Positions 3,319 through 63,983 of a DNA stretch of 64,000 nt are shown piece by piece (the first letter of the stretch is position 1; each line of letters opens with the position of its first letter). Both the position numbers and the translations under genes were made by a program. The stretch comes from Planctomycetia bacterium (GTDB lineage Bacteria > Planctomycetota > MHYJ01 > WSZJ01): positions 8,214 through 72,213 of the forward strand of contig JADLHC010000130.1 in assembly GCA_020849035.1 (NCBI GenBank), read 5' to 3'. The notes beneath the pieces are model-generated. The model had not been told where the DNA came from. It did not search any database and saw nothing but the letters and a program-made list of their open reading frames with translations.

Positions 3319-3908
3319 AGGACGGCGGCTCCGGTGAGGAGGATGAGGAGGAGGCGGACGAGGACGGAGGCCATGATGAGGGAGGAGATGGTCTGGACGA
3401 GGCCCTGGCGTTCCATCCAGTCGGCGATGAGGCCGGGGATGATGTAGCCGATGGGGGCGAGGACGATGGAGGTGCGGTCGTCGAGGCGGATGGGGAGGGC
3501 GCGGGCGAGGGCGCCGAGGGAGAAGGCGATGAGGATGATGATGACGGTGCGGCGGCGGCCGTAGATGAGCATGTAGCGGGAGAGGACGCGGACGACGCCG
3601 TAGGTGGCGAGGGCGACGGCGAGGGTGACGGCGAGGGTGCGGCCGGCGGCGAGGGGGGGCTGGGCGAGGGCGAGGGCGACGTAGCCGGGGACGATCATGC
3701 CCCCGGTGGCGAGCCCTAGGGTTTCGGAGAAGGCGAGGGAGACGACGAGCCCGAGGGCGATGGCCTCGATGAGCAGTTCGACGGTCGGCCCGCCGGGCGC
3801 GGCGGAGCCGGCGGCCCAGGCCGTCGAGGCGAAGAGGACCGTCGCGGCGGCAGCGCGCAGGAGCAGCCCGCGGGAGCCCCGAGCGCGGTCAGCTGGCGGC
3901 GGCGCCAT
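3315..3908 (-). CDS. pgsC: poly-gamma-glutamate biosynthesis protein PgsC/CapC
   Basis: Motifs GMIVPGYVALALAQP, MLIYGRRRTVIIIL, IIPGLIADWMERQGL match Bacillus CapC (GLVVPGYLGLVFNQP / MILYGRRKF / IVPGLIANTIQKQGL); multi-pass membrane protein; true start probably downstream of 3908 (non-ATG) because longest ORF overlaps pgsB by 20 nt. Confidence 0.85.
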   Translation of the reverse strand: MAPPPADRARGSRGLLLRAAAATVLFASTAWAAGSAAPGGPTVELLIEAIALGLVVSLAFSETLGLATGGMIVPGYVALALAQPPLAAGRTLAVTLAVALATYGVVRVLSRYMLIYGRRRTVIIILIAFSLGALARALPIRLDDRTSIVLAPIGYIIPGLIADWMERQGLVQTISSLIMASVLVRLLLILLTGAAVL

Positions 3909-49832: not shown

Positions 49833-49931
49833 GCGGCCCGGGACGCATCGGACGCGGCATGCCGCGTTGACGGCACAGCGACAGCCGGTCGGCTCCTTCG
49901 TGCATCGACGGGCCTCCAGGCGGCGGCCTGC

Positions 49932-52013
49932 TCAGCCCCCAAGCTGCGCCCACGCCGCCCACACGCTGGCCGGCGCTCCGGCGGCGAGGGCGCTGCGCTG
50001 GGCGGCGGAAGCGGAGAAGCCGCCGGTGTAGTAGGCGGCCATGAAGTCCCGGAGGGTCGCGTGGTCCTCGAGCGGCCAGAGCGTGGCGACGACGGAAGCG
50101 GCGCCGGCCCTGAGGAAGGCGCGCGGGAGGCCGACCATCTCCTCGGCGCGGGTCCAGTCGCCGCGGGCGGAGTCGCAGGCGGACAGGACGGCAGCGCGCG
50201 TTCGGGAGAGGTCCAGCGCGGCGAGGTCGCTCGCCGTGAGGCGGTCGCCCTTCGCGAGCTGCAGGTGCGACAACTCGGGCCGGTCCGGGCGCCAGACCGC
50301 GTGCGTGGCGAAGTGAAGGACGTCGTGTCCCGGAGCGGCGCGCATCACGGCGTCGCGAGTGGCCGCGCCGGCCTCGAGGACCGTCAGGCGCTGTCCGAAG
50401 ACGCGCGCCACGGCCTCCCGTTCGCCCGCCGCGTTCGGGAGCGAGCCCGTCGGGTCCTCCACGAACAGGCACCGCGCGCGCTTCGCGTCGAACGCCCGCT
50501 GCCGTGACCGGAGCGTGGCGAAGACGCTGGCGGAAGGGGCGGTGACGACGTCGAGAGAAGCGGCGGCGGGGCGGCCGCGGAGGCGCAGGGCGGGGAAGGG
50601 GACGACGTGGAGGGCATCGTCAGGGACGACGACGAGGCGCGAGAGGCCGTCCAGCTCCAGGGGCGCGAGAAGCGCGTCGCCGAGGAGGGCGAAGTGCCAG
50701 TCGGCGACGGCGCTTCGGCCGGCGCGTTCTTCGCGGCGCGCGAGGGCGAGGACGCGGTTGAGGTCGTGCGCGGCCTCGAGGGCTTCGGCGGCGGGCAGGC
50801 GTACGGCGCGGAAGCTGCCGCGGGTGAAGACGAAGGCGAGGAGGTCGTCGCCCACGCGCTGGTACTGGACGAGGGCCTCCGCCGGGCGCAGCGCGGCGCG
50901 CACCTGCGCGGCGGCGAGCGGCGCGCGCGGCTGGACGCGGGCCTGCGCGAGGCGCTCCTTTTCGTAGCGGCGCAGCGCGAGGCGCTCGTCGTCCTCGAGC
51001 CGGCGGAGGCGCCCGGGGTCGCGGCCCTCGCGCTGCAGCCGCTCGATTTCCGCGCGCAGCGTCTCGAACCGCGCGCGCTCCGACGGCGCGAGGTGCGACA
51101 GGTCGCGCGGCCGCGGCGCCGCGACGAAGTCGAGAAACGCCCGCGCCCGCGCCGCTTCCGCCGCGCGGAACGCCCCCGCCCACCGCCCGGCCTCCGCTTC
51201 CAGCGCCACCCGCATCTCGTGCACGCCGTGCGCCGCGCCCGCGAACGCCGCCCGCCCCTCGTCCAGGTCCCGCCCTCCCCGCCCCTCCTCGATCGCCCGC
51301 TCCCCCCGCCTCAGCTCCCGCCGCGCCTCGTCGCGCTTCCCCAGCCCCAGCCACGCCCGCGCCCGGTACGCAAAGGCCCTCGGCCGGTTCCCGGGATCGA
51401 GCGTGAGCACCGCGCGGTAGTCGCGGAGCTCGAGATTCGCCCACGCGACGTTCACGGGGTCCTTGAGGAGGGGAAGGGCCTTTCGCGGGCGGCCCTCGCG
51501 GAGGAGCGCGATGCCGATCGTCTGGCGCGCGGTGGCGGCCGCTTTCGGATCGTCGGTGGCGCGGAGCGCGCGCTCGGCCCATCGGCGCGCCTCGGCGTGG
51601 CGGCCGAGGTAGCTGCAGCTGACGCCGCGCGTGTTCCAGACCTTGGCGCGCGCGTGGTCGTCGGGGGCGGCGGCCTCGGCCTCGTCGCAGAGGCGAAGGG
51701 CGGTCTCGTGGTCGCCGAGCATGCCGCAGGTCATGGCGACGCCGCGCAGGGCCTCCCAGAGCGCGGGGTCGCCGCCGAGGGAGCGGTAGATGGCGCAGGC
51801 GTTCTGGAACATCGCGCCGCCGGCCTCCGGGTCGCGCCGCGCGATCGTGGCATTCCAGCCCGCGAGGCGCCAGCGGTGGCCGATGTCCCGCATCACCGCG
51901 GGGTCGCGCCCCGAGAGATCGCGCGCCCGGTAGAACGCCCGCCGCGCCCCGAGCACGTCGCCGCCCGCGAGCCGCTGGTCCGCCTCCGCGAGCGTCTCCT
52001 CGACCGCGCTCAT
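49932..52013 (-). CDS. TPR + CHAT-domain (caspase-like) protease
   Basis: N-terminal TPR helices; C-terminal CHAT signature with His (DVLHFATHAVW) and Cys (AAVLSACDSARG) dyad; ATGA overlap with upstream sigma gene on minus strand. Confidence 0.8.
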   Translation of the reverse strand: MSAVEETLAEADQRLAGGDVLGARRAFYRARDLSGRDPAVMRDIGHRWRLAGWNATIARRDPEAGGAMFQNACAIYRSLGGDPALWEALRGVAMTCGMLGDHETALRLCDEAEAAAPDDHARAKVWNTRGVSCSYLGRHAEARRWAERALRATDDPKAAATARQTIGIALLREGRPRKALPLLKDPVNVAWANLELRDYRAVLTLDPGNRPRAFAYRARAWLGLGKRDEARRELRRGERAIEEGRGGRDLDEGRAAFAGAAHGVHEMRVALEAEAGRWAGAFRAAEAARARAFLDFVAAPRPRDLSHLAPSERARFETLRAEIERLQREGRDPGRLRRLEDDERLALRRYEKERLAQARVQPRAPLAAAQVRAALRPAEALVQYQRVGDDLLAFVFTRGSFRAVRLPAAEALEAAHDLNRVLALARREERAGRSAVADWHFALLGDALLAPLELDGLSRLVVVPDDALHVVPFPALRLRGRPAAASLDVVTAPSASVFATLRSRQRAFDAKRARCLFVEDPTGSLPNAAGEREAVARVFGQRLTVLEAGAATRDAVMRAAPGHDVLHFATHAVWRPDRPELSHLQLAKGDRLTASDLAALDLSRTRAAVLSACDSARGDWTRAEEMVGLPRAFLRAGAASVVATLWPLEDHATLRDFMAAYYTGGFSASAAQRSALAAGAPASVWAAWAQLGG

Positions 52014-53278
52014 GCGCGCCGGCCGCGGATCCACTGCATCGCCCGCTCGCGAACCCGGTCGCGGTCCAGCCCCTCCGCGCCCCGCGTCACGACGTCGGGG
52101 CCGCCGAGCGGCGTGGCGGGCAGCGCCTTCAGCGTCTGCGCCGGAACTTCGAGGACCTCGGCCAGCCGTTTCAGCAGCGCCGCGTCCGGTTTCAACTCGT
52201 CGGAGAGCAACCGGCGGAACTGCGACGGCGTGAGGCGCAGCGCCTTGCGCGCCGACTCGCACTCGTCGGCCGTCCGCAGCCGCGCCTGCACGAACGCTCC
52301 GAGCGTCGTGAACGCCGCCTCGAGCGGCGCCACGCCGAACGCCGCGCGCACGAGGGCGATCGTCCGCCGCGCCCGCGCGAGCAGCGGATCCTCCGCCGCA
52401 CCGCCGATGTCGAGCACCTGCGCGAGGACCTTGCCACGCCCGCGCAGCGTCGCCTGCCGGTACAGGTCGTGCGCCGCCGAGAGCAGAAGCGCCCGCGTCT
52501 CTTCCAGCCCGAGTCCCGACGCCTTCGCCGCCGCCGCCAGGTCGCCCGTCAGCCACGCGCGGTACGCCGCCCGCGCCGCGGGGTCCTTGATCTTCTCCGG
52601 GTCGAGCCGCTCAGACATGGCGGGCCCCAGCGCCGACAGCACGGCCTCGGCCTTCGTCCCGCCGCGCCGCTGCCACTCCTCGAAGAACGCGGCCGTCGCG
52701 CGCTCCTTGAGCTTGCGGATCGCGTCGGGCTTCCTGTCCGGGTAGAGGTCCTGCAGCTGCGGCCCCGAGAAGTCGAGCAGCACCATCCACACGAAGGCGA
52801 CGCGGTCGGATTCGCGAAGGGCCTTGAGCGCGGCGGTCGCGATCTCGAGGACCTCGATGAGCGTCACGTGCGCCATGGAGCCGGGCGGGATGACCGGTGC
52901 CGCGTTGCGGTCCTCGCGCGGCTCGCCGTCCTCGTCCACCGGCACGCCGACGAGCTTGACCTTGCGGCGGATCCCCGACGTCATCGCGTTCACCAGGATC
53001 CGGCACGCGTAGGTCCGGAACTGCGCCCCGCCGTCCCGCCGGTAGTCGCAGATCGCCCGGCCGAGCACGTCGCCGACGAAGTCCTCCAGCGAACCCATCG
53101 CGGTGTTCGCCAGCAGGCGCGCGATCGCTCGTGTCCTGCCGTAGACGACGCCCTTCAGGATCGGCAGGTTTCGCCGGTAGAGCTCGTCGAAGGCCGCCTT
53201 CTGCCGCACATCGCCTTGCGTCCGCGCGGCCTCCACGAGGTCCTCGTCCGGCGCCTGCGACAGGGAGAGTTCGCTCAT
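52010..53278 (-). CDS. ECF-like sigma factor with ~230-aa C-terminal extension
   Basis: Region-2-like DEDLVEAARTQGDVRQKAAFDELYRRNLPILKGVVYGRT...EDFVGDVLGRAI; region-4-like ESDRVAFVWMVLLDFSGPQLQDLYPDRKPDAIRKLKERA; long helical C-terminal tail; 422 aa. Confidence 0.7.
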   Translation of the reverse strand: MSELSLSQAPDEDLVEAARTQGDVRQKAAFDELYRRNLPILKGVVYGRTRAIARLLANTAMGSLEDFVGDVLGRAICDYRRDGGAQFRTYACRILVNAMTSGIRRKVKLVGVPVDEDGEPREDRNAAPVIPPGSMAHVTLIEVLEIATAALKALRESDRVAFVWMVLLDFSGPQLQDLYPDRKPDAIRKLKERATAAFFEEWQRRGGTKAEAVLSALGPAMSERLDPEKIKDPAARAAYRAWLTGDLAAAAKASGLGLEETRALLLSAAHDLYRQATLRGRGKVLAQVLDIGGAAEDPLLARARRTIALVRAAFGVAPLEAAFTTLGAFVQARLRTADECESARKALRLTPSQFRRLLSDELKPDAALLKRLAEVLEVPAQTLKALPATPLGGPDVVTRGAEGLDRDRVRERAMQWIRGRRA

Positions 53279-53468
53279 CGGTGCTATTCGAAGAAGGCAC
53301 GAGCGTAGCCGCGTGACGGGGCGGTTTCAAGCAAGCGGGGGGGCGGGTCGGGCTCATGGCGCTGGCACTCCGAGCGGACGGTGCGACTTACGCCGGAAAC
53401 GGGCGGGTGTGACGGGGAATCCGGATGGCGGGGGAGCGGTGTCACGGTGCGGGGGCGGTCGCGTAGGT

Positions 53469-53505
53469 GGGGTTGAGCGGTTGATGGGTTGAGGGGTTGA
53501 GGGAG
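53469..53505. repeat. single-arm copy of the 8-bp GGTTGAGG tandem repeat
   Basis: ggttgagc ggttgatg ggttgagg ggttgagg gag, in divergent promoter region between 52010-53278 (-) and 53534-54478 (+). Confidence 0.65.
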
Positions 53506-53533
53506 TGGGCCCGCGGGAACTTCGATCGGAGAG

Positions 53534-54478
53534 ATGACCATGGAACCGACGATGGACAGCCAGGACGGGGCGATCCGGAAGCTGCTGGAGACGTGCCGGC
53601 CCGGCGCGGCCCTCAGCCGGGGCAACCTGACAGTCGTGCCGCTCTTCGGGCCGCCTTGCGGGCCCGAGGTCACGCTTCTCCGCGACGCCCTCCGCGATGG
53701 CTCGGCGGAGATCACGGAAGTCGGCGAGCAGGGAAGCGTCAACCTCCTGCTCGTCCGCAATCGAGGCGACCGCCCGCTCCTCCTCCTCGACGGCGACCTC
53801 GTCGTCGGCGGCAAGCAGAACCGCGTCGTCAACGCCACCTTCCTCGTCGGCGCCCGCTCCGAGGCGCGCATCCCCGTCAGTTGCGTCGAGCACGGCCGCT
53901 GGCGCCACGAGGGGAAGCGATTCGAGGCGTCCGCGGCCTCGCTCAATCTCGGCCTGAAGTCGGCGAAGTTCGCGCGGCTGATGGAGTCGCTGAAGCGGGA
54001 CGGCCGGTACGACGCGGACCAGGGGGCGGTCTGGGACGACGTCGCGAGCTACTCGGCGCGGCGCGGGGTGGCGTCGCGGACCGACGCGCTCGCCGACGCC
54101 GTCGAGGTCTCCCTCCCCGGCGCGGAGCAGCTGGCGCAGGGCATCCGGCCCGCCGAAGGCCAGACCGGGCTCGCCGTCTTCATCAACGGCCGCTTCGCGG
54201 GCCTCGACCTGTTCGGCCGCCCTGCGGTCCTCGCGGCGGCGCACGACGCGCTTGTTCGGGCCAGCGCCCTCGAGGCGATGGACCAGGCCGGCGGGACGCG
54301 CGCCGCGCGCCGGGTGTCGGCGCGCGCCGTGCTCGGTCGCCTCGCGCGATCCGCCAAGGCCGGGCACCCTGCGCCCGGCGAGGGGACCAGCGTCCTGCTC
54401 GAGGATCGCCGTCTCGCCGGCTGCGCGCTCGTCAGCCCCGACGGTCCCGTTCACCTCGCGGCGTTCGCGGTCCGATGA
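53534..54478 (+). CDS. hypothetical protein
   Basis: 314 aa; divergent from sigma gene; no family recognised from sequence alone. Confidence 0.5.
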   Translation: MTMEPTMDSQDGAIRKLLETCRPGAALSRGNLTVVPLFGPPCGPEVTLLRDALRDGSAEITEVGEQGSVNLLLVRNRGDRPLLLLDGDLVVGGKQNRVVNATFLVGARSEARIPVSCVEHGRWRHEGKRFEASAASLNLGLKSAKFARLMESLKRDGRYDADQGAVWDDVASYSARRGVASRTDALADAVEVSLPGAEQLAQGIRPAEGQTGLAVFINGRFAGLDLFGRPAVLAAAHDALVRASALEAMDQAGGTRAARRVSARAVLGRLARSAKAGHPAPGEGTSVLLEDRRLAGCALVSPDGPVHLAAFAVR

Positions 54479-54672
54479 GCCCCGCCCGCTTCTGCCACCG
54501 CGAACGAGGCCGCGCCGGCGCGGCGTCGCGCCTCGTCCGCCACGGCCTCCGCCCGCCCGCCGGCGCCGCGGTGCGGCTCGCCTGGGGCGCGGCCGAGGTC
54601 GGGCTGCTCGTGCTCACCGTGACGGGTGCGCTCCTCGTGGCACGCGCGCTGCTGGGGAAGCGACGCTGCTGA
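54475..54672 (+). CDS. small hypothetical membrane protein (65 aa)
   Basis: ATGA start/stop overlap with upstream gene; C-terminal hydrophobic helix GLLVLTVTGALLVARALLG; weak. Confidence 0.3.
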   Translation: MSPARFCHRERGRAGAASRLVRHGLRPPAGAAVRLAWGAAEVGLLVLTVTGALLVARALLGKRRC

Positions 54673-54736
54673 ATTCCCGTCACGCCGGCCGGCTTCGTGC
54701 GAAGGAAGGAAGGCACTTCACTGGGAGGGGACGCCG

Positions 54737-55870
54737 ATGACGCTTCCGTACGAACACGCCGAAGTTCTCGCGCTGAACCTCGTGTCTCGCGGCGAAGGAA
54801 CGCACCCCGTCACCGGCGCGCCGGGAGTGCAGGACGCCGTCGTGCGATTCCCCGCGGAGAAACGCGGCTCCGTCGAGGTGGCGCTTCGCGATGGCGGAAA
54901 GACGGTGCACCGGTTCGTGTTCCATTTCGGCGCCCCCGACGAGGAGATCCCGGCTGCGGAGCCCGCCCGCAAGGAGCCGCCCCTCGACGTCAAGCTCGAG
55001 GAGCTCCGCGGCGCCGTCGCGGCGAACCCCGAGGACGCCGGCGCCTGGAACTCGCTGGGAAGCGCCCTCTTCAATGCCGGCCGCGCGCGCCAATCGGTCG
55101 GGCCGCTGCGGAAGGCCGTGGAGCTCGCGCCGAAGAACCCGTACTACGCGCTCGAGCTCGGCCTCGCGCTGTCGCGGGACCGGAACTACGCCGAGGTCGA
55201 GCGGGTGCTCGAGTCCGTCGTTGCCGCCGACCCGAAGCTGGAGATGTGGCCCTCGCACCCCGGCGTCATCGCGATGGTGAAGCTGGCGCACGCCCGCTGG
55301 AAGCTGGGGAACGCCGCAAAGGCCGTCGCGACGCTCCGTCCCACACTTCCGCTCGTCACCGGGATCCTCCGCGACCTGGGCGCCTACGCGATGGACGCCG
55401 GCCGCCACGCGGAGGCCGTCACGTTCCACTCCGCCGCCGGCAGCCTCGACCCCTCGATGGAGGACGCCCTCCACGGCGCCGGCCGCTCGCTGCTCTGGCT
55501 CGGGCGCGCGAAGGAAGCGGTCCCCTGGCTCGAGAAGGCGACGCGCGCCAAGCCGTCCTGCGACGACGCCTGGTACGACCTCGCCCTCGCCTACGCCCGC
55601 CTCGGCCGCCGCCGCGACGCCCGCGGCGTCCTCCGCCGGCTCCTCCGTCGCAACCCGAGGCACGCCCCTGCCTGGTACGAGCTCGCCTGCCTCGACGCCC
55701 TCGACCGCCACCGCGCCTCCGCCTTCCGCCACCTCACCCGCGCCGCCCGCTGCGGCTGGAACCGCGTCGCCCACGCGCAGGTCGACCCGGACCTCGCCGG
55801 CCTCCGCGAGGACCGGCGGTGGGCCGGGGTTGTGGAGGAGATGCGGAAGGCGGGGCCGCCGCCGAGATGA
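54737..55870 (+). CDS. TPR-repeat protein
   Basis: 377 aa from MTLPYEH with GGGAGGGGA RBS; multiple TPR helices (AWNSLGSALFNAGRARQSVGPLRKAVELAPKNP...). Confidence 0.6.
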   Translation: MTLPYEHAEVLALNLVSRGEGTHPVTGAPGVQDAVVRFPAEKRGSVEVALRDGGKTVHRFVFHFGAPDEEIPAAEPARKEPPLDVKLEELRGAVAANPEDAGAWNSLGSALFNAGRARQSVGPLRKAVELAPKNPYYALELGLALSRDRNYAEVERVLESVVAADPKLEMWPSHPGVIAMVKLAHARWKLGNAAKAVATLRPTLPLVTGILRDLGAYAMDAGRHAEAVTFHSAAGSLDPSMEDALHGAGRSLLWLGRAKEAVPWLEKATRAKPSCDDAWYDLALAYARLGRRRDARGVLRRLLRRNPRHAPAWYELACLDALDRHRASAFRHLTRAARCGWNRVAHAQVDPDLAGLREDRRWAGVVEEMRKAGPPPR

Positions 55871-55994
55871 CGCTGGCGGAGATGTTCGAGCGGGTGAGCG
55901 GCGCAAGGGGGAGCTGCTGGAGGAGCGGGCGGTTCCGGCGGGACTCGGGGCGGCGAGGATGCGGTAGCGGAACGCGGGGGTACGGCTTCGCCGG

Positions 55995-57497
55995 CTATGC
56001 ATCCAGCGCCGGCACGCCGGCCTTCGCGCACGTCGAGCGCATGGACTTGGTGATCTGTCGAATGCTCGCCTCGGCCTTGATGGATCCCAGGACTCCGGTC
56101 CCTTCCGACCATCGCTCGCGGGCCGGTCCCCCGCGGCCCGTGATGGCGAAGACCGCCGCGAGGCCGCAGAGGTGGACGCCCTCGAAATGCCGGTTTCCCG
56201 TGGCGCGATCGAGCTCCAGCGCCTTCTCGTAAGCGCGTTCGGCCTCCCCGGCGCGGCCGGTTTCGAGGTACAGCCCCGCCAGGTTTCCCGTCGTGATCCC
56301 CTCGTTCCTGCGCTGGCCGATCTCGCGATGGATCGCGAGCGACTCCGCGTAGGTTCTCTCGGCGAGCTCGATCCGGCCGGCGTCCTTGAAGCAGCCGGCC
56401 AGCGCGTCCAGCGTCGTGCCTTCGCTGCGGCGGTTCCCGACCTCCCGGTGGATGGCGAGCGCCTGCCGCAGCAGGTGTTCCTCCTCGTCCGGCCGCCCGA
56501 GGTCCCGGGACAGGACCGCGAGGTTCTGCAGGGCCGCCCCCTCGCCCCTCCGGTTGCCCACTTCGCGGTGGATGGCCAGCGCCTGCCTGCCGGTCTGCTC
56601 GGCGAGCTCCGCACGGCCGCTTTCGGAGTACACCGTGGCCAGGTTCCCGATCGCCAGGCCCTCGCTGCGGCGATTGCCGACCTCGCGGTGGATCCGGATG
56701 GCCTCCCGGAAGGTCTCCTCGGCCAGGGCGACGCGCCCCGAGTCCTGGTAGAGGATCGCCAGGTTCCCCAGCACCAGTCCCTCGTTGCGGCGATCGTCGC
56801 TTTCGCGATGAAGCGCGAGCGCCCGGAGGAACGTCCGCTCCGCCGGCTCGGCGCGCCCGGTCTCCAGCTGGGTGATGCCCATCGTCCCCAGGAGCGCGCC
56901 CTCGCTGCGCAGATCCCCCGTTTCGCGGGCGATCTCCCGCGCCTGCTCCAGCAGGCCCTCGGCAAGGTCCATGCGCCCGAGGTGCTGGTGGACGGTGCCG
57001 AGCATCCACAGGGCCGTCATCTCCCCACGCCGCGCGCCCCGCCGCCGATGCACCTCGAGCGCCTCCTCCAGCAACGGCAGCGCCCGCTTCGCCCCCCCGC
57101 GGAGCAGCGCCGCCGACGCGGCACGGACCAGCGCCGTTCCCCGCTCCTCCGGGGCGCAGACCCCCGCCAGTTCCGCCCAGCACGCCTCCTCCTCAGGCCG
57201 GAACGTGCGCTGCGCCACCTCCGCCGCTCGGCGGAGGTAGAGGGGAAGCAGCGCCGGTGCCGCGACGCGGGCGTGCATCGCCAGCTCCAGCGCGAACGGG
57301 TCCGTCGCGTGCCCGTCGACTGCGGACTCCTCTCCCGCTTCCAGCGGCGGCGGCTCCGCCGGGCGCCCCCCGCACACGCCCTCGATCGTCGCCAGGGCCA
57401 GCGCGTGCAGCCGCGCGCGGTCGCCCGGGATCTGGACCTGGTACGCGGCGTCGCGGAGGAGGGCGTGGCGGAAGAGGTAGAGGAGTTCGGCGGACAC
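55995..57497 (-). CDS. TPR-repeat protein, paralog family A (third copy)
   Basis: LYLFRHALLRDAAYQVQIPGDRARLHALALATIE near N-terminus and STCAKAGV C-terminus; many GNRRSEG-type TPR units; start set at GTG 57497 by analogy with paralogs (ORF from ATG 57686 adds 63 unlikely codons). Confidence 0.65.
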   Translation of the reverse strand: MSAELLYLFRHALLRDAAYQVQIPGDRARLHALALATIEGVCGGRPAEPPPLEAGEESAVDGHATDPFALELAMHARVAAPALLPLYLRRAAEVAQRTFRPEEEACWAELAGVCAPEERGTALVRAASAALLRGGAKRALPLLEEALEVHRRRGARRGEMTALWMLGTVHQHLGRMDLAEGLLEQAREIARETGDLRSEGALLGTMGITQLETGRAEPAERTFLRALALHRESDDRRNEGLVLGNLAILYQDSGRVALAEETFREAIRIHREVGNRRSEGLAIGNLATVYSESGRAELAEQTGRQALAIHREVGNRRGEGAALQNLAVLSRDLGRPDEEEHLLRQALAIHREVGNRRSEGTTLDALAGCFKDAGRIELAERTYAESLAIHREIGQRRNEGITTGNLAGLYLETGRAGEAERAYEKALELDRATGNRHFEGVHLCGLAAVFAITGRGGPARERWSEGTGVLGSIKAEASIRQITKSMRSTCAKAGVPALDA

Positions 57498-57699
57498 GCG
57501 TGAAGTGAACCGCGGGTTCCGCCGGATGTCGAGCGGGCGGACCAACGCACCTCCGGAGATGCTCGTCGAGCAGGGGGACCGTGAACCTGTCGCCGGCCTT
57601 GGCGGCCATCCGTTCGACCTCGTTGAAAAGCTCGGTCTCTCCCGCGACGAGCCTCGAACCGCTGTCAGGGGGAGGGATGCCCGCATCGGGGAAAGCGGA

Positions 57700-57870
57700 T
57701 GCTTGAGGGAGCCATTTGTAGTGACTTCTACCCATCTATAATCGGAATTGAGTAGACATCTCCATGAAGTGGCAAGTCCTTCTGCGCGAAGAAGTTAGGA
57801 CAATTGGAGGAGCTGGCTAGCTGCCCGCGTGACCTGGAAGGAAGAAGCTCCGGGAGGAGTAGGGTGGCCG
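57700..57870. other. AT-rich non-coding patch at left edge of defence/TA island
   Basis: ccatttgtagtgacttctacccatctataatcggaattgagtagacatctccatgaagtggcaagtccttctgcgcgaagaagttaggacaattggaggagctggctagc: compositionally foreign relative to 70% GC flank; no ORF >20 codons. Confidence 0.5.
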
Positions 57871-57871
57871 C

Positions 57872-58399
57872 TCAGTCGCGCTGCAGCCCATCGGCGAACC
57901 CCTGCCGGCTGATGTCCTCGCGGTACTTTCTCGTGAAGTGCCTCGCCAGGTCCGGCTGAACTCGCCCGATGGCGGCCAAGATCTCCTCGAGCGAAATCCC
58001 GGCCTCGGACCGGCGTTTCATCCCGAGCACGCGAAACGTGATGTGGTCGGCAGAGCACAACCGGTAAGCGGGCTCGGACGGCTGCGACAGGAGCCAGGCC
58101 AGCGAAGCGGTTTCTCCCGGGTTCATGTCCGGGCGCCAGGCCGCGGGAACGGACTCGATGAGCTGCTGGATCTGCGCGAGGGCGACGCTCACGATCTTCA
58201 CATTGCCGGACGCGACGTCGGGAGCCAGGTCAATCTCGTGGCGATTCCCGTCGGCGTCCTCGTAGAAACGCGCCTCGTCGCGCACCGTCTCGACCATCGT
58301 GATCTCGCCGTGCGAGACCAGGTGCCGCCACGCGCCGCGCCGCCAGACCTCGATGACGACGTCCGCATCAAGGAGAAGGAATCGGAATCGCTTCGCCAT
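57872..58399 (-). CDS. PIN-like / DUF4411-like small protein (putative toxin partner of HTH-ImmA/IrrE)
   Basis: 175 aa; N-terminal FLLLDADVVIEV resembles PIN/DUF4411 acidic start; overlaps upstream HTH-ImmA gene by 32 nt. Confidence 0.45.
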   Translation of the reverse strand: MAKRFRFLLLDADVVIEVWRRGAWRHLVSHGEITMVETVRDEARFYEDADGNRHEIDLAPDVASGNVKIVSVALAQIQQLIESVPAAWRPDMNPGETASLAWLLSQPSEPAYRLCSADHITFRVLGMKRRSEAGISLEEILAAIGRVQPDLARHFTRKYREDISRQGFADGLQRD

Positions 58400-59483
58400 T
58401 CCGTGCGTCCTCAGCGAGGAGGCGCAGGGCCTGCGCCCGGGACGTGTTCGTCATCCGCGCAAAGGTGCCGACGGAAAGCCGGCCGCCCCGGAGGGCATGC
58501 CAGGCGAGCGACTCGAAGCGGGCAGGGAGTTCCGGGGCGGGGGAGTCGTGCCGGAACGCCAGCGAGGGGGTCAGCGCCTTCGCCCTCTCGATCAGCTGCC
58601 GTGTGCCGGGGCCGTCCTCCACCCGGCGGCCATAGACGTAGTGAAGCCTCCAGATCGCCGACTCGACCGACACGTCGAACGAGCGCGCGACGTCGTGAAG
58701 CGCCTCAGGGCCGATGGTGCCGTCGCGGGTGCGCTCATCCACCGCGGTTCGGAAGGCCTCCTCCGGCATGAGCAGCGCCGCCGCGAACGCCGTCGCCAGC
58801 TTCTCTTCGCCGTCCCACGCCTCCGCCGCCGGCGCCGCGCCGTCTCCGTGAAACACATTCCAGGTGAGCAGGTGAAAGAGCTCGTGGGCCAGATCGTGAT
58901 TCCGCCGCCACCGCACGCTGCGCCGGTTCAGGAGGATCGCCGCGCCGACGTCCCCGGAGACATGGGAAGCGGCCGTCCCCTCGGGCTCGAAGTCGAGGTG
59001 GAAGACCTTGATCTTCCAGACTTCTTCGAGGACGCGGAGCAACACAGGGCCCGGGCGATCGCCGAGGGCGAGCGTCCGCCGGACCGTGTGCGCGAGCTCG
59101 GCCGCCCTGCGGTAGTCCCACTCCGCCGCCCGGCCCGCGGCCTGCGGCAACGGCGGCGCCGGCGGTTCCTGTTCGAGGATCTCGAGCCTCCGGTACGTGC
59201 GGCAGAGTTCGAGGAAGCGGCCCTCGACGTCCCGCGCCCCGGCGGCGGGACGCTGGCGCCAGAGGACGAGCGGCTCCGAGGTGATCGGCGTTTCTTCGAG
59301 GAACCAGGCGAAGGGCCGGTGATAGGCCCGGCCGAGCGCCTCCAGTTGCCCCAGGCTGGGCTCGCGCTTTCCCCCCTCGAACTCCGACAGCGAGGACTCG
59401 CCGACGCCCGAGCGCACGGAGGCCTCGGCCTGGGTCAGGCCGGAGCGTTCGCGGGCGGCGCGAAGGCGGTCGGGGAGAGGCAT
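58368..59483 (-). CDS. XRE-family HTH fused to ImmA/IrrE (M78-like) metallopeptidase domain
   Basis: N-terminal LRAARERSGLTQAEASVRSGVGESSLSEFEGGKREPSLGQLEALGRAY (HTH_XRE); HEXXH in HDLAHELFHLL. Confidence 0.8.
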   Translation of the reverse strand: MPLPDRLRAARERSGLTQAEASVRSGVGESSLSEFEGGKREPSLGQLEALGRAYHRPFAWFLEETPITSEPLVLWRQRPAAGARDVEGRFLELCRTYRRLEILEQEPPAPPLPQAAGRAAEWDYRRAAELAHTVRRTLALGDRPGPVLLRVLEEVWKIKVFHLDFEPEGTAASHVSGDVGAAILLNRRSVRWRRNHDLAHELFHLLTWNVFHGDGAAPAAEAWDGEEKLATAFAAALLMPEEAFRTAVDERTRDGTIGPEALHDVARSFDVSVESAIWRLHYVYGRRVEDGPGTRQLIERAKALTPSLAFRHDSPAPELPARFESLAWHALRGGRLSVGTFARMTNTSRAQALRLLAEDARNGEAIPIPSP

Positions 59484-59659
59484 GGCGGCTCCGAAGTTCT
59501 GGATAACAGATGAACATTAACCTATCTTTTGAACAAGTCAAGGCAGTGGCCTTGAAAACCAGAGAAATCTCCTTCGCCTCGCCGCCAGGGACAGGCCGTG
59601 CGGTTCGCGCCCAGTTTGCCTCCGGCTCGCTATCATGTCGCAACGAACCGACACCGCCG

Positions 59660-60655
59660 ATGCCTCTCCCCGCCCCCCTCCTCGACTCCCTCCACAAGCT
59701 CAAGCGCGACACGCGCGGCGGCTGGGGCGACGACACGCGCGGCGGCGCGCCGCACAAGCCGATCCTGCTGCTGGCGGTGATGGATCTCGTGGAAGCGGGG
59801 CTCCTGCGCGAGAACCTCGTCGCGTACGACGAGCGGTTCCTCGAGGTGTTCGACCAGTACTGGACCGCGTGCCGCGGCGACCGGCCGACGAACCCGCTGC
59901 AGCCGTTCTGGTACCTCAAGGGCGACGGCGTCTGGAGCCACGTCCCGCGCCCCGGGCAGAAACTGGTCCTCGACGCGCTCGCCGCCGCCGGCCGCGTCCC
60001 CCCGCTGCGGCGCTTCCGCGACATCGTCGCCGGCGGGCGCCTGAGCCCGGCGCTGTGGGACGCGATGCGGACGCAGGAAGGGCGCGACGAGCTGCGCCGC
60101 GCGCTGCTGGCCCGCTACTTCGGCGACGAACTCCGCGGCCGCCTCGCCGCCCGCCACGGCCTCGTCGTGGAGTCGGTGAAGTGCGAGTCCGCCCTCCGCC
60201 GCCGCCTCGAACAGGAACTCGCCGACCTCTTCGCCGGCGACGGCGCCCTCGGCGAGCAGTTCACCGAGGAGGGCCGCTCCCTCGCCTTCCGCTCCGTCGT
60301 CGTCGCCGCCTACGAGCACACCTGCGCCGTCTGCCGCGCCCGCCTCCGCACCCCGACCGGCCGCAGCGCCGTCCAGGCCGCGCACATCGTCCCGTTCAGC
60401 GTCTGCCGCAACAACGACCCGCGCAACGGCCTCGCGCTCTGCCCGCTGCACCACTGGGCCTTCGACCAGGGGATGCTCGCGGTGACCGACGAGTACGCGG
60501 TGAAGGTGCACCCGTACGCGGAGGAACTGCCGGCGGACGAGGGGTTCCGGGCGCTGAAGGGGCGGGCGCTGCGGCTGCCGGGGGACGCGAGGATGCACCC
60601 GGCGCGGGTGGCGATCGAGTGGCATCGGATGAGGGTGTTCGGGCAGGTCGGATGA
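59660..60655 (+). CDS. HNH_2-type endonuclease with N-terminal putative sensor domain
   Basis: C-terminal CAVCRARL...SAVQAAHIVPFSVCRNNDPRNGLALCPLHHWAFDQGMLAV (His-Asn-His nuclease core); start placed at second Met because first 50 codons lie in AT-rich promoter-like DNA. Confidence 0.7.
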   Translation: MPLPAPLLDSLHKLKRDTRGGWGDDTRGGAPHKPILLLAVMDLVEAGLLRENLVAYDERFLEVFDQYWTACRGDRPTNPLQPFWYLKGDGVWSHVPRPGQKLVLDALAAAGRVPPLRRFRDIVAGGRLSPALWDAMRTQEGRDELRRALLARYFGDELRGRLAARHGLVVESVKCESALRRRLEQELADLFAGDGALGEQFTEEGRSLAFRSVVVAAYEHTCAVCRARLRTPTGRSAVQAAHIVPFSVCRNNDPRNGLALCPLHHWAFDQGMLAVTDEYAVKVHPYAEELPADEGFRALKGRALRLPGDARMHPARVAIEWHRMRVFGQVG

Positions 60656-60694
60656 CGCGAGGAGCCTCGGGAGTCCCCCGCCCCCGATTGCGGC

Positions 60695-60967
60695 CTACGT
60701 GGGCAGCCACAGCACGGCGTTGCGCACGTCCTCCGCCGTGTGGACTGCGAGGAATCGAAGCGTTCTTGCCAGCAGCTCCCGGAATGGCCGCTGCGGCGTC
60801 AGGAGCGCTCGCCCCTGCCGGGTCGCTTCGCGCAGGACATCCACGTCCGCGGCACCGGACAACCGGAGCTGGTTGACGTGCACGGCGTCGAACCCGCGGT
60901 CGCGCAGCGTCTCGGCCAGCAGGGGCCGGGTGTCCTCGTCGAGGAGCAGGCGGACCGGATCGGCCAC
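60695..60967 (-). CDS. DUF5615-family (PIN-like) putative toxin
   Basis: 90 aa, LLDEDTRPLLAETLRDRGFDAVHV typical of DUF5615; GTG start 1 nt from stop of DUF433 gene. Confidence 0.7.
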   Translation of the reverse strand: MADPVRLLLDEDTRPLLAETLRDRGFDAVHVNQLRLSGAADVDVLREATRQGRALLTPQRPFRELLARTLRFLAVHTAEDVRNAVLWLPT

Positions 60968-60968
60968 G

Positions 60969-61250
60969 TCAGACGGAGAGCTTGCGGCGCACCGCGGCCG
61001 GCTGCTGCCTCCGGATCAGCGCGTCGACCTCGCCCTTGTGATCGTGGTAGTACGAAAGCGCGTCGTACACCTGGGCCAGCGACAGGTGCGACCACTCGCG
61101 CACCATCTCCTCCGGCGCCATTCCCTGGCGCAGCACGTACTCGACGACGGAGCGGACGGGGAAGCGCGTCCCACGGATCACGGGTTCCCCCCCGCAGACG
61201 GACTTGCGGCGGGAGACGTAGGGGTGGCTGGGGATGGTGGGGCGAGGCAT
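60969..61250 (-). CDS. DUF433-family putative antitoxin
   Basis: 93 aa; CGGEPVIRGTRFPVRSVVEYVLRQGMAPEEMVREWSHLSLAQVYDALSYY is the canonical DUF433 core. Confidence 0.8.
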   Translation of the reverse strand: MPRPTIPSHPYVSRRKSVCGGEPVIRGTRFPVRSVVEYVLRQGMAPEEMVREWSHLSLAQVYDALSYYHDHKGEVDALIRRQQPAAVRRKLSV

Positions 61251-61361
61251 ATTTCTGATTCTAGCACGCAGCCTTCGAGTGCGGCATGTGCGGTTCGAGA
61301 AGGCGGACAAATGGCCCGCCTCTCTTGATGCACGGCTCTCGAGACTCGTACCATTCCGCCC

Positions 61362-62285
61362 GTGAGGGGCCTCATCGGACTGACCGACTTTGACTGGTAC
61401 ACGCAGCTCGCGGCGACTCCGTCGCTGCCTGAGGTGAACTTCTGGCTCCCGGGCGGCCACGCGAGCGTCAAGATCATCGGCCCCGGCGACCCGTTCTTCT
61501 TCCAGCTCAAGGCGCCGCACAACGCGATCGCGGGGTTCGGGACGTTCGTGCGGTCGTGCCCGGCGACGGCGGCGCAGGCGTGGGACGCGTTCGGCGCGAT
61601 GAACGGCACGCGCTCGCACGCCGAGCTGCTCGAGCGGATCTCGTACTACCGCGCGAAGCACGGCCGGCCGGTACAGCCCGGCGAGGACCCCGAGATCGGG
61701 TGCGTCCTTCTCACGGAGCCCGTCTTCTTCCCGCGCGCCGACTGGGTCCGCCGCCCCGCCGACTGGCCGGCGAACACGGAGCGCTGGAAGTCCTACGACC
61801 TCGCGGCAGGGGAGGGCGCTCGCCTCTGGGCCGACTGCCGCGACCGTGCCAGGGTCGTCCCGATCGTCGCCGAGGAAGCGCCCCGCTACGGCGCCGCGCA
61901 GTTCGTCGAGCCTCGCCTCGGCCAGGGCGCGTTCCGCCTCGCCGTCACCGACGCCTGGCGCCGCGCCTGCGCCGTCACCGAGGAGCACTCGCTCCCCGCC
62001 CTCGAGGCCGCCCACATCCGCCGATACCGCGACGGGGGTCCGCACTCGCTGCGCAACGGCCTCCTCCTCCGCGCCGACATCCACCGCCTGTTCGACCGCG
62101 GCTACGTCTCTGTGGACCCGGACGGCGTGTTCCGAGTGAGCCCGCTCCTCCGGCGCGACTTCAAGAACGGCAAGTCGTACTACCAGCACGATGGGCGACG
62201 ACTCGTGCTCCCAGAGGCAGAGCGTGACCGTCCGGATCCGGCGCTCCTCCGGACTCACTTCGAAGGGGTGTTCAAGCGTGCGTGA
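61362..62285 (+). CDS. HNH_2-type endonuclease with distinct N-terminal beta-rich (PUA/EVE-like?) domain
   Basis: C-terminal EAAHIRRYRDGGPHSLRNGLLLRADIHRLFDRGYVSVDPDG nuclease core, paralogous to 59660-60655 core; N-terminal domain differs. Confidence 0.7.
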   Translation: MRGLIGLTDFDWYTQLAATPSLPEVNFWLPGGHASVKIIGPGDPFFFQLKAPHNAIAGFGTFVRSCPATAAQAWDAFGAMNGTRSHAELLERISYYRAKHGRPVQPGEDPEIGCVLLTEPVFFPRADWVRRPADWPANTERWKSYDLAAGEGARLWADCRDRARVVPIVAEEAPRYGAAQFVEPRLGQGAFRLAVTDAWRRACAVTEEHSLPALEAAHIRRYRDGGPHSLRNGLLLRADIHRLFDRGYVSVDPDGVFRVSPLLRRDFKNGKSYYQHDGRRLVLPEAERDRPDPALLRTHFEGVFKRA

Positions 62286-62373
62286 GGGCTGCGCGTCCAG
62301 GAACTCCCACGGTGGAAGCGCCCATTCATCGTCCTTCCTGACCTGCGTCGGAAGTCGATGACTCGTCAGCCTG

Positions 62374-62868
62374 TCAGCGGGTCGCGCCCAATACGAAGGT
62401 CGCTCTCTCAACCCGCAACATCTCGAAGGGCGTCATGCACTTGACCCTAACTCCGATGCATGCGTTCGGAATCTTGATCTTCTTCGGGGACGGTGCCGCG
62501 ACTTCGTGGGTGACGACTGTGTACCCGTGCGCAAGGGCGTGCGCGACGAGGTAGTAGTCGGCGCGCTGCAGGAAGACGCTGACACCGCTCTGATCGTAGC
62601 CAGCCCCGTTGGCCCAGGTGCTCACCGGCCCCAGCGCCGCAAGCAACGGTGCATCCGGCTTGAGGAAGAAGTTTGCGCCCCTCCTGGCCGCCCAGACTGA
62701 CAGCTCATCGGCGACCGCGGCGAGTTCGTCCGCGACTTTCTCGATGCTGAACACCTGGCCAGCCGCGTTTCTGGCGACCAGCCACTCCCAGAAGGCAGGG
62801 CAGAAGTCCAGACCGTAGTGCAGATTCTTGGCCTGTATGAAGACATCGGAGTCGAGGAGATACGCCAT
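62374..62868 (-). CDS. DUF4411-family protein (putative toxin partner of HTH-ImmA/IrrE)
   Basis: Start at internal Met 62868 (MAYLLDSDVFIQAKNLHYGLDFCPAFWEWL) with TGATG overlap to upstream gene; ...YYLVAHALAHGYTVVTHEVAAPSPKKIKIPNACIGVRVKCMTPFEML matches DUF4411 conserved end. Confidence 0.75.
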   Translation of the reverse strand: MAYLLDSDVFIQAKNLHYGLDFCPAFWEWLVARNAAGQVFSIEKVADELAAVADELSVWAARRGANFFLKPDAPLLAALGPVSTWANGAGYDQSGVSVFLQRADYYLVAHALAHGYTVVTHEVAAPSPKKIKIPNACIGVRVKCMTPFEMLRVERATFVLGATR

Positions 62869-63983
62869 CAGAGCACGCCCAGGCTGCTGCCCAGCTGCCG
62901 GAACGTCGCGAGCTTCGAGAAGCCCAAAAGGCGGAATGCGTCTGTATACAGGGTGAGCCCCTCGAGCGTGTTCACAACCAGCGCTCTCGCGAAGCGCTTG
63001 CTGACTCGCGCTGCCTGCGTCAGGTAGAAGTTCCCGCCGTCGCCCTTCTTGATCGCCTTCAGCCGCGCCAGTTCGTCGAAGTACAACTCCCACATTCTCT
63101 CGCGGGTCAGCCCCCCGGCGTCGTGCATGCGCCGGAGGACGACGAGCGCGCTGACCTTGAAGCGACGAGCAAGTCGGCCGGCCTCATCGAGCGGAGGTGT
63201 CCCCCGGTCGTACTCATTCCGAAGGACCTCGATGGGAACGAGGAGCTCAGCCGCGACCGCGTTGCACCACTTTTCGATGCGATTGTCGGGGTAGGTGACG
63301 GGGCGGACGTTCGATACTCCGGTTTCGCCCAGCCAGATGTGCGCCAACTCGTGGGCGAGCGAGAACATCTGCGCAGATTTCGAGTCCGAGCCGTTGATGA
63401 AGACGAGCGGGGCCACGCCGTCGGCCAGGGCGAACCCGCGAAATTCCTCGGGGTCCAGTTTCCGCGTGTTGTTGCTCCCGACCACCCCGCTCACCATCAC
63501 GAGAACACCAAGCGCGTCCGCCTGGTCGATGAATCGCCGGAGCGCATCAGTCCACGTCGGGAGACCTCGCCGCTCTTCAAGATCCAGCCCGAGCCTGTGG
63601 CGCATGTCCGCCGCGGTTTTCACGACGTCGCTCGTCACCTTCGCCGAGCCTACGAATTGCAGCGGCTTCTCGCCGAGCGACCGTGCAAAGTCCCGATACC
63701 ACTCCTGACGTTGCTGGCACAAGTACAGGGTGTCCAGCAGGTCCGGCGAAGGCCGGTCGATGGGCCGGTGTTCCATGGTCCGGAAATCCGGAATCGGCAG
63801 CGTCTCCACCGGCGGTGCATCGAGAAAGAGGTACCCGATGGGCGCATGAGTGGCCTTCGCGAATGTCTCGAGTTGCCGAAGAGTCGGCTGACTCCGGCCG
63901 AGTTCCCACGCCGGCAAGCCTGGCAGTCGCCCCGCAAGCGCGCCGATCTCCAGCCCGGCCCTTTCCCGGGCCCAGCGGAGCAA
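62868..63983 (-). CDS. XRE-family HTH fused to ImmA/IrrE (M78-like) metallopeptidase domain, second copy (start may lie beyond window end)
   Basis: HEXXH in SLAHELAHIWL; N-terminal LRWARERAGL... parallels 58368-59483; first Met 17 nt from window edge so N-terminus may be truncated. Confidence 0.75.
   Translation of the reverse strand: MLRWARERAGLEIGALAGRLPGLPAWELGRSQPTLRQLETFAKATHAPIGYLFLDAPPVETLPIPDFRTMEHRPIDRPSPDLLDTLYLCQQRQEWYRDFARSLGEKPLQFVGSAKVTSDVVKTAADMRHRLGLDLEERRGLPTWTDALRRFIDQADALGVLVMVSGVVGSNNTRKLDPEEFRGFALADGVAPLVFINGSDSKSAQMFSLAHELAHIWLGETGVSNVRPVTYPDNRIEKWCNAVAAELLVPIEVLRNEYDRGTPPLDEAGRLARRFKVSALVVLRRMHDAGGLTRERMWELYFDELARLKAIKKGDGGNFYLTQAARVSKRFARALVVNTLEGLTLYTDAFRLLGFSKLATFRQLGSSLGVL

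Follow-up and report, generated by a model that had tools for sequence, protein, structure and literature searches.

Two overlapping genes on contig JADLHC010000130.1 of a Planctomycetia bacterium (GenBank assembly GCA_020849035.1) probably form an autoregulated two-gene module of the toxin-antitoxin type, of the Xre-COG2856/Rosmer kind, in which the predicted toxin is a PIN-like nuclease. All coordinates refer to the window, that is, the whole stretch of 64,000 nucleotides that was analyzed (positions 8,214 to 72,213 of the contig). The upstream gene, open reading frame (ORF) A, encodes a helix-turn-helix (HTH) domain of the XRE type fused to an M78 zinc peptidase, and the downstream gene, ORF B, encodes a small protein of a family that has no database model. 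The two genes and their parts are the following:

58368-59483, minus strand: ORF A, 371 amino acids; predicted repressor/antitoxin composed of an XRE HTH, an M78 (ImmA/IrrE-type) zinc peptidase and a C-terminal helical domain
57872-58399, minus strand: ORF B, 175 amino acids; PIN-like predicted nuclease toxin
58368-58399, minus strand: 32 nucleotides shared by the 3' end of ORF A and the 5' end of ORF B
58408-58412, minus strand: GAGGA, Shine-Dalgarno-like by sequence reading, 8 nucleotides 5' of the ORF B ATG and within ORF A
59289-59483, minus strand: XRE-type HTH domain at the ORF A N-terminus (residues 1-65), from Pfam HTH_3 (residues 7-61) and Foldseek
58644-59015, minus strand: Peptidase_M78 domain, ORF A residues 157-280, from Pfam PF06114
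58872-58886, minus strand: zinc-binding/catalytic motif HELFH, ORF A residues 200-204, read from the translation
58398-58622, minus strand: C-terminal helical domain, ORF A residues 288-362, from AlphaFold helices and without a Pfam match

Since spurious long ORFs are abundant in high-GC DNA and the G+C content of the window is about 70%, the coding status of both ORFs was checked in three ways. Their G+C content at third codon positions was 0.86-0.87. Compared with their homologues in loci L001, L004 and L009, nucleotide identity by codon position followed the order 2 > 1 > 3, with values of 0.90, 0.81 and 0.59 at positions 2, 1 and 3 for ORF B against L001. Against a contig from other samples that is 97-99% identical, ORF A had 20 codons with synonymous and 5 with non-synonymous changes, and ORF B had none; ORF B is also 100% identical to protein IT452_09820. 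Judged by these sequence measures, both are genuine genes and not chance ORFs of high-GC DNA. The small ORF is conserved and coding at homologous loci, contrary to the outcome that a first-pass annotation of the window had named as speaking against its reading. The overlap of 32 nucleotides reported in that annotation was also found, and it implies translational coupling of the two genes; the GAGGA sequence could act as the Shine-Dalgarno-like element of ORF B.

The pairing of these two genes is strict. A B gene lies directly 3' of a full-length HTH-M78 gene at all 38 loci with readable upstream DNA, the window included, and these represent at least nine phyla; at 37 of them the genes overlap by about 20-35 nucleotides and at the remaining one an insertion sequence (IS) element stands between A and B. 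The taxa are Planctomycetota, Acidobacteriota, Myxococcota/Deltaproteobacteria, Alphaproteobacteria (Hyphomonas), Acetothermia, Omnitrophota, Syntrophales, Bacteroidota and Zixibacteria. The scan for loci took one genome per species and returned 26 loci, all from metagenome-assembled genomes. Based on gene calls in eight lineages (down to about 24% identity to the window ORF B), B was always directly 3' of a gene with HTH_3 and Peptidase_M78 domains, and the overlaps measured 20, 26, 29, 32 or 35 nucleotides, all equal to 2 modulo 3. Custom hidden Markov models (HMMs) detected an A-family gene at each of the 31 loci that include upstream DNA, full-length where the contig permits and with E values from 1e-88 to 1e-163, and in most of these the A stop codon falls about 29 nucleotides past the start of the B profile. 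When the sampling was reversed, both of the two A homologues taken had a B gene downstream (E = 1e-69 and 1e-70). One specific HTH-M78 clade is paired with the B family throughout, and the pairwise identities of A and B proteins from 28 loci are correlated (Mantel r = 0.94; 0 of 2000 permutations as high), which points to co-inheritance without partner swapping within this clade. The pairing of PIN-like and M78 proteins had been described in the first-pass annotation as recurrent but poorly characterised; the 38 loci bear out the recurrence, and such pairs are better characterised than the second part of the description implied, in view of published accounts of them (PMC2701414, PMC5499597) and of the RosmerTA and RipAB experiments considered below.

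The genes that flank the pair differ between loci and no third gene is conserved, so that A/B can be regarded as a self-contained mobile unit. Integrase and primase-polymerase genes next to it in L012 and L047 are further signs of its mobility, as are six IMG/VR contigs that carry the pair, five with the overlap and the sixth with an IS element between the genes. These contigs came from a scan with an alignment of the DANV clade; the IMG/VR scan with an alignment of close relatives gave nothing, and tblastn searches with ORF B and a central family member found no match among PLSDB plasmids and INPHARED phages. Adjacent, co-oriented, overlapping and kept together in varying contexts, the genes are laid out like a type II toxin-antitoxin module. 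An in-frame stop codon divides the B gene of L042 (2941-3528) into parts covering profile positions 1-45 and 50-173, and the upstream HTH-M78 gene is intact; this B gene looks like a decaying toxin. In the IMG/VR locus L050 (2929-3959) an IS630-like transposase in two ORFs on the opposite strand sits exactly at the A/B junction and changes the C-terminal tail of A; a terminase-like gene adjoins. With the stop codon of L042 and the IS of L050, it is the toxin side that decays, a typical pattern among toxin-antitoxin pairs.

Two further loci were observed in passing. In L014/L015 (1-4396) the pair has a full-length Peptidase_M1/DUF3458 gene on one side and short fragments of these domains (126 and 75 amino acids) on the other, which suggests insertion of the cassette with target duplication or gene disruption. 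The 5.5-kb contig of L008 carries, at 2431-5007, a second HTH-M78 gene with a PemK/MazF toxin, together with a canonical PIN gene and its 74-residue partner, and provides an example of M78 antitoxins paired with unrelated toxins.

The reading of ORF A as an XRE-HTH peptidase with a HEXXH motif, already made from the sequence, was borne out by Pfam and PADLOC. Pfam HTH_3 (2e-10) and HTH_31 (8e-12) match within residues 5-61 and Peptidase_M78 matches at 4e-12; the PF06114 score of 46.6 bits against a cutoff of 22 makes the protein a member of Peptidase M78. Fifteen RmrA models of PADLOC match ORF A, the best at 6.3e-23 over residues 4-281, and the CapP and CapH models match its protease and HTH halves. 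The NCBIfam model of the spr1629 family repressor/antitoxin matches at 7e-16, with 58 bits that are far below its cutoff of 335 bits. In the PDB, a profile of ten A partners matched 9vzy_A (393 amino acids, named 'HTH cro/C1-type domain-containing protein') over its full length at 5e-27, and also IrrE (3dte, 4e-12), CapP (7t5t, 1e-5), ImmR and DdrO; a literature search returned no relevant paper on 9VZY or on a recent ImmA/IrrE antitoxin mechanism.

The AlphaFold model of ORF A, obtained from 65 homologues with a mean predicted local distance difference test (pLDDT) of 88.6, consists of a five-helix XRE domain, a lower-confidence linker at residues 61-70, a zincin core and C-terminal helices at 288-308, 321-332, 338-344 and 349-362. 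By Foldseek, the top matches of the protease part are IrrE/PprI structures, including the complex of PprI with single-stranded DNA (ssDNA) 8sln, and the HTH part superposes on the HTH domains of P22 c2, ImmR and DdrO with root-mean-square deviations of about 1.0-1.7 Å. All 28 partner proteins compared, and the 65-sequence alignment as well, have H200, E201, H204 and E227 without exception, which argues that catalysis by ORF A is under selection. The HExxH motif (HELFH, HELYH or HEVFH) was read in 30 of 31 upstream A genes, the exception being L032, which ends at a contig edge. In the C-terminal domain L326, G334 and S337 are conserved among A proteins, and residues 288-362 are a candidate toxin-binding region. 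Between the HTH and the protease, ORF A carries a V-L-W-R-x-x-P motif at residues 73-79 (window about 59247-59267), in which W75, R76 and P79 are invariant across all A partner proteins and a short beta-strand is predicted at residues 73-75; one possibility is that the motif acts as a pseudo-substrate or cleavage site.

ORF B had been called PIN-like as well, and an HMM search of 57872-58399 for the PIN and DUF4411 families had been proposed to check it. That search gave no family match: ORF B matched nothing in Pfam (E<=10), NCBIfam (E<=1), PADLOC or PHROG, and 121 diverse relatives gave just scattered chance-level matches to Pfam and PADLOC, with a weak PIN_4 match (0.0077) in one of them. 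Profiles built from 8 and from 121 ORF B sequences had no meaningful match, and none to PIN, in the PDB; an ORF B profile did not align significantly with the canonical PIN protein of L008, and Foldseek found nothing among the viral structures of BFVD. The family itself is large. A word-indexed search recovered 8 close homologues of ORF B, and a profile search run exhaustively over 1.84 billion cluster representatives recovered 1066 relatives (clusters at 50% identity) at E<=1e-3, 645 at E<=1e-10 and 91 at E<=1e-30. Nearly all members have 165-195 amino acids, and their source names are all 'hypothetical protein'.

The PIN-like character of ORF B is supported by its predicted fold and by the layout of its acidic residues, not by a sequence-family model, and to this extent the earlier description stands. 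The AlphaFold model has a pLDDT of 92.8 and a predicted template modelling (TM) score of 0.87. Its top seven PDB matches in Foldseek are all PIN proteins (among them 1y82, 1v96, 1ye5 and VapC4 5h4g), with probabilities of 0.99-1.0, an E value of 6.5e-3 and TM scores of 0.49-0.54 normalised by the query and 0.60-0.63 normalised by the target. Later matches with a probability >=0.8 are mostly PIN, VapC or Nob1 structures; PAE2754, VapC15, VapC20 and Nob1 also rank among the best PDB matches. Residues D11, E42, G95, E96, C115, D118 and S136 are invariant in 28 of 28 B proteins; D11, E42, E96 and D118 are >=90% conserved among the 121 relatives and S116 is invariant in a 23-sequence alignment. In the model, D11 is at the end of strand 1 (LLLDADVVI), E42 in the helix after strand 2 (TVxxE), G95-E96 at a helix N-terminus and S116-x-D118 after strand 4. 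Judged by these strand and helix positions, D11, E42, E96 and D118 would fit a PIN active site. Beyond a minimal PIN domain, ORF B has an inserted beta-hairpin and strand at about residues 43-70 and a conserved C-terminal helical extension at residues 130-175, with invariant G134 and S136, an SLEE motif (S136-L-E-E), G145 and G167.

The window contains a second HTH-M78 pair, referred to as module 2, whose toxin belongs to DUF4411, and the same identity was considered for ORF B and ruled out: neither ORF B (E<=10) nor any of the 121 relatives matches PF14367, which the module 2 protein, as a positive control, matches at 7e-50. Between the 121-sequence ORF B profile and the DUF4411 protein of the window only 14 N-terminal residues (LLDxDV) aligned, at 2% probability, so the partner does differ from that of module 2, as had been proposed. 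The two modules share the two-gene logic, the strand order, an antitoxin of 371 amino acids and a PIN-like toxin with an N-terminal LLDxDVxI. However, their antitoxins are 27% identical and their toxins cannot be aligned past those 14 residues; the genes of module 2 are 2 nucleotides apart and do not overlap, and DUF4411 has a PHROG match whereas ORF B has none.

Evidence for autoregulation was sought 5' of ORF A. The upstream HNH_2 gene is called as 331 amino acids in an identical contig, which leaves a divergent intergenic region of about 173 bp, with these putative elements:

59536-59541, minus strand: putative -35, TTGACT, from cross-locus conservation
59514-59519, minus strand: putative -10, TAATGT, from cross-locus conservation
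59497-59511, minus strand: putative operator ATCTGTTATCCAGAA (TTCTG-N5-CAGAA with 1 mismatch), between the -10 and a GGAG ribosome-binding site

The promoter was deduced from conservation across loci, the window, L001 and L004 having in common TTGACT/TTGAAA, a spacer of 16-17 nucleotides and TAWTGT 5' of gene A; a generic scan for sigma-70 promoters and terminators returned no site, the putative -35 and -10 being below its threshold. The operator motif was derived by comparing 32 upstream regions. Within 150 nucleotides 5' of gene A and with <=1 mismatch, TTCTG-N5-CAGAA occurs at 14 of the 32 loci (16 sites, 8 of them perfect); shuffled sequences gave 0.12 sites, and coding and far-upstream controls 0. 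A generic repeat finder detected no inverted repeat 5' of ORF A. An HTH domain in ORF A and an enriched palindrome overlapping the window promoter make ATCTGTTATCCAGAA a putative operator, in a position typical of an autorepressor, and ORF A would be expected to bind it. Distant clades (L015, L036, L012/L016) are devoid of TTCTG-N5-CAGAA and have other long AT-rich palindromes 5' of A, such as TTGTAAGAAATTCTTACAA in L015. This suggests that the operators may be clade-specific, as is expected if HTH specificity co-evolves with the operator.

Taken as a toxin-antitoxin-type module, the pair could work as follows. The HTH of ORF A would bind TTCTG-N5-CAGAA over the promoter and repress the operon, and ORF A would keep ORF B, a predicted Mg2+-dependent toxin of the RNase type, inactive, likely as a stoichiometric complex, whose formation would be helped by translational coupling. 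A signal from stress or phage, possibly ssDNA or DNA damage by analogy with IrrE/PprI and CapP, would then activate the M78 protease. The protease may turn on ORF A itself and cut it, in cis or in trans, in the XRE-linker region, as ImmA, IrrE and CapP cut separate XRE repressors. Cleavage would derepress the operon and free the PIN-like nuclease, and the freed nuclease could degrade RNA and arrest growth, with abortive infection or stabilisation of the genomic island as the outcome. The specific self-cleavage chain is put forward tentatively, at odds well below those of the module as such: the HTH-M78 protein may be a single-chain combination of an ImmR-like repressor and an ImmA-like protease. 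That ssDNA or DNA damage triggers a cut in the V73-L-W75-R76 strand region, and that this would bring about derepression and release of the PIN-like RNase in one event, is an equally tentative proposal.

Systems of this kind are on record. Xre-COG2856 fusions beside PIN toxins were already described, by bioinformatics and as 'three-component' toxin-antitoxin systems (Makarova 2009, PMC2701414; Matelska 2017, PMC5499597), the 2017 catalogue lists COG2405, DUF4411, PIN_14, PIN_20 and PIN_26 among the PIN-like partners (PMC5499597), and NetFlax links an ImmA/Rosmer antitoxin node to PIN-like domains (PMC10440598). As in those systems, in A/B a fused XRE-M78 gene is directly 5' of, and co-transcribed with, a gene for a single-domain PIN-like protein, the HEXXH motif is conserved and the occurrence is patchy and mobile. 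PIN_14 is portrayed as bacteria-wide, with 3-4 acidic residues and found with HTH and DUF955, and ORF B would agree with this account, the comparison being by description only (PMC5499597). In contrast to those PIN families, ORF B matches no Pfam model of the PIN clan, DUF4411 and DUF3368 included, and its core carries the beta-hairpin insert and the C-terminal extension.

For HTH-M78 proteins, a role as antitoxins has experimental support in RosmerTA and RipAB (10.1101/2022.05.11.491447, PMC10440598, 10.1101/2025.09.02.673660). An rmrA deletion could not be transformed (10.1101/2022.05.11.491447), RosmerTA of Gordonia phage Kita protects against phages (PMC10440598), and RipB (Spr1629) counteracts the toxin RipA and is not essential unless RipA is there (10.1101/2025.09.02.673660). 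Like A/B, RosmerTA and RipAB (Spr1630/Spr1629) have an antitoxin made of an HTH and a zinc peptidase, with ORF A matching RmrA over nearly its full length, and are two-gene operons in defence islands or on phages. They differ in that their toxins depolarise membranes (Kita RmrT) or target the sliding clamp (RipA) and are not PIN nucleases, and in that the order of A/B is always antitoxin first. VapBC offers a further comparison: a toxin of the PIN fold whose acidic residues form a D/E/(D or E)/D set, an overlapping antitoxin gene upstream and, likely, an autoregulated promoter with a palindromic operator. Yet VapB is a small protein (70-90 amino acids) of the AbrB, RHH, Phd or MerR type with no enzymatic domain, whereas ORF A is a repressor-protease of 371 amino acids, and ORF B has no detectable sequence similarity to PF01850. 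ImmA/ImmR of ICEBs1, IrrE(PprI)/DdrO of Deinococcus and CapP/CapH of CBASS share the M78 fold and catalytic motif with ORF A, and ImmR and DdrO, the protease substrates there, resemble its N-terminal domain. In those systems, however, the protease is a protein apart from the repressor, and what results is transcriptional derepression of a regulon or element; in A/B they form one chain, and the sole conserved output gene is PIN-like. IrrE has a GAF-like C-terminal domain, which is absent from ORF A, whose C-terminus is helical.

Several points weigh against reading A/B as such a module. No sequence model ties ORF B to PIN, PF01850 and the other Pfam models of the PIN clan being unmatched; the fold match is moderate (Foldseek E = 6.5e-3, TM about 0.54-0.63), and the third acidic residue is Glu (E96) where PIN domains usually have Asp. 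No PADLOC RmrT model matches ORF B or any of the 121 relatives, although the diversity of Rosmer toxins means that this miss lowers formal membership and not the functional analogy. The operator motif is present at just 14 of the 32 loci, those of the window's clade, and in the window it has one mismatch and its upstream copy is degenerate. The correlation between A and B could be explained by co-inheritance alone. Direct binding of ORF B by ORF A is a presumed interaction. The literature examined holds no demonstrated self-cleavage of a fused HTH-M78 protein, and the need of the RipAB antitoxin for ClpX points to other mechanisms (10.1101/2025.09.02.673660).

In a different account of neutralisation, ORF A would not sequester ORF B but would cleave it continuously or hand it over to a host protease such as ClpXP; inhibition or titration of the protease, through a phage protein or stress for instance, would let the toxin build up. 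We consider it unlikely, yet it would explain that HEXXH and the Glu are invariant in all partners, something that pure sequestration would not require, and it has a precedent in the ClpX-dependent action of RipB (10.1101/2025.09.02.673660). AlphaFold, moreover, gave no RmrT-RmrA complex for the Kita system (PMC10440598), and M78 antitoxins pair with toxins as unrelated as PemK in L008, DUF4411 in module 2 and the diverse RmrT (PMC10440598), a promiscuity more easily explained by catalytic or regulatory neutralisation. On the other hand, the tight translational coupling and strong co-divergence of A and B fit a specific protein-protein interface, and a PIN domain as compact and well folded as that of ORF B (pLDDT 92.8) is a poor protease substrate. 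CapP cleaves an XRE-type repressor and not a nuclease. The same holds for the characterised ImmA and IrrE/PprI, which cut XRE-type repressors, not nucleases (PMC5499597, PMC2701414).

Less likely still, the genes may not be a toxin-antitoxin pair at all: ORF A could be a fused regulator of immunity or stress of the ImmR-ImmA type, with ORF B a non-toxic accessory nuclease under its control, acting for example in RNA processing or DNA repair. Fused HTH-M78 proteins do include ordinary regulators of the PrpR/RamB type, Foldseek matches the Mycobacterium tuberculosis regulator 6cyy, JGI labels some homologues 'fatty acid utilization regulator', and some loci are beside integrases or in viral contigs. 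However, most loci are outside recognisable mobile elements, Pfam detected no PrpR C-terminal domain of the DUF2083 type in ORF A, and ORF B is its sole conserved partner, with no third gene or regulon conserved. The pair behaves instead like a mobile two-gene cassette in neighbourhoods rich in defence and toxin-antitoxin genes, and its toxin side shows pseudogenisation (L042) and an IS insertion (L050). The reverse polarity, with the ORF A protease as toxin and its own HTH or ORF B as neutraliser, is very improbable: it goes back to the original Xre-COG2856 prediction, in which COG2856 was entered as a presumed protease toxin and Xre as its antitoxin (Makarova 2009, PMC2701414), and it has echoes in a Brucella ZnMP/HTH-Xre pair discussed as a toxin-antitoxin system with a protease toxin (PMC10538038), and in the name 'CapP toxin' of PDB 7t5t, but later experiments on fused HTH-M78 proteins gave the opposite result (the untransformable rmrA deletion and RipB essential only with RipA; 10.1101/2022.05.11.491447, 10.1101/2025.09.02.673660), the modelled active site of ORF B appears to be of a nuclease type typical of toxins, and it is B and not A that decays in L042.

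The A/B module sits in a cluster of toxin-antitoxin and defence genes. Its neighbours on the side of ORF A are:

59657-60655, plus strand: HNH_2 protein with a weak match to the ScoMcrA sulfur-binding domain
60695-61259, minus strand: toxin-antitoxin-like pair of DUF433 (96 amino acids) and DUF5615/PIN_10 (90 amino acids), between the two HNH genes
61362-62285, plus strand: second HNH_2 protein
62374-62865 and 62868-63983: module 2, DUF4411 and HTH-M78 genes, respectively

The match of the first HNH_2 protein suggests a type IV restriction enzyme. Genes of the HNH family also flank A/B in L009, L010 and L016, and a recurrent association is possible; a pair of the DUF433/DUF5615 type was likewise seen near A/B in L004-L007. 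On the other side, the TPR gene at 55995-57545 was considered as a member of the module and rejected, since it is separated by a gap of 326 nucleotides and is not conserved at other loci. Further along, about 47872-55900, the annotation of L018 includes an ARPP-1 domain protein (53534-54478), TPR proteins, a CHAT-protease/TPR protein and a DUF7309 protein, a content such as conflict or NLR-like systems typically have.

Contigs L018 and L019, which come from other samples, match the window from 47872 to 62286 at 97-99% identity and then diverge into unrelated genes for proteins of 122, 193 and 207/259 amino acids, one of them with a Trypsin_2 domain; module 2 is absent from them. This break of synteny at 62286 shows that the island is strain-variable exactly there. 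Within the matching part the differences are patchy (58476-58755, 60000-60499 and 61500-62286) and are concentrated towards the end of ORF A, where its C-terminal third has 25 changes in 280 nucleotides (part of the codon changes given above), and in both HNH_2 genes; ORF B and about 8 kb further upstream are nearly identical. The patches look like recombination tracts in a variable defence island.

The architecture has been known since 2009/2017, and the window holds another instance of it, in a strain-variable defence island. What is new is a PIN-like family of about 1000 clusters without a model in current libraries (PIN_14 being compared by description only), the strict lock of this B family to one HTH-M78 clade, and the definition of a candidate operator. 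Uncultured Planctomycetota, Acidobacteriota, Myxococcota/Deltaproteobacteria and candidate phyla account for almost all clusters of the B family, and in the absence of a Pfam, NCBIfam, PADLOC or PHROG model its genes are annotated as 'hypothetical protein' and missed by finders of defence systems and toxin-antitoxin pairs. Defence islands widely contain HTH-M78 'protease antitoxins' (Rosmer, RipAB, Xre-COG2856), and the wider question is how these sense a signal and release their toxin. With one antitoxin clade and one toxin family, a fixed overlap, invariant catalytic residues and a recognisable operator, autoregulation, self-cleavage and release become directly testable in A/B. If self-cleavage is true, this abundant and uniform family would be a clean model for the sensing of infection and the release of toxin in Rosmer-type systems.

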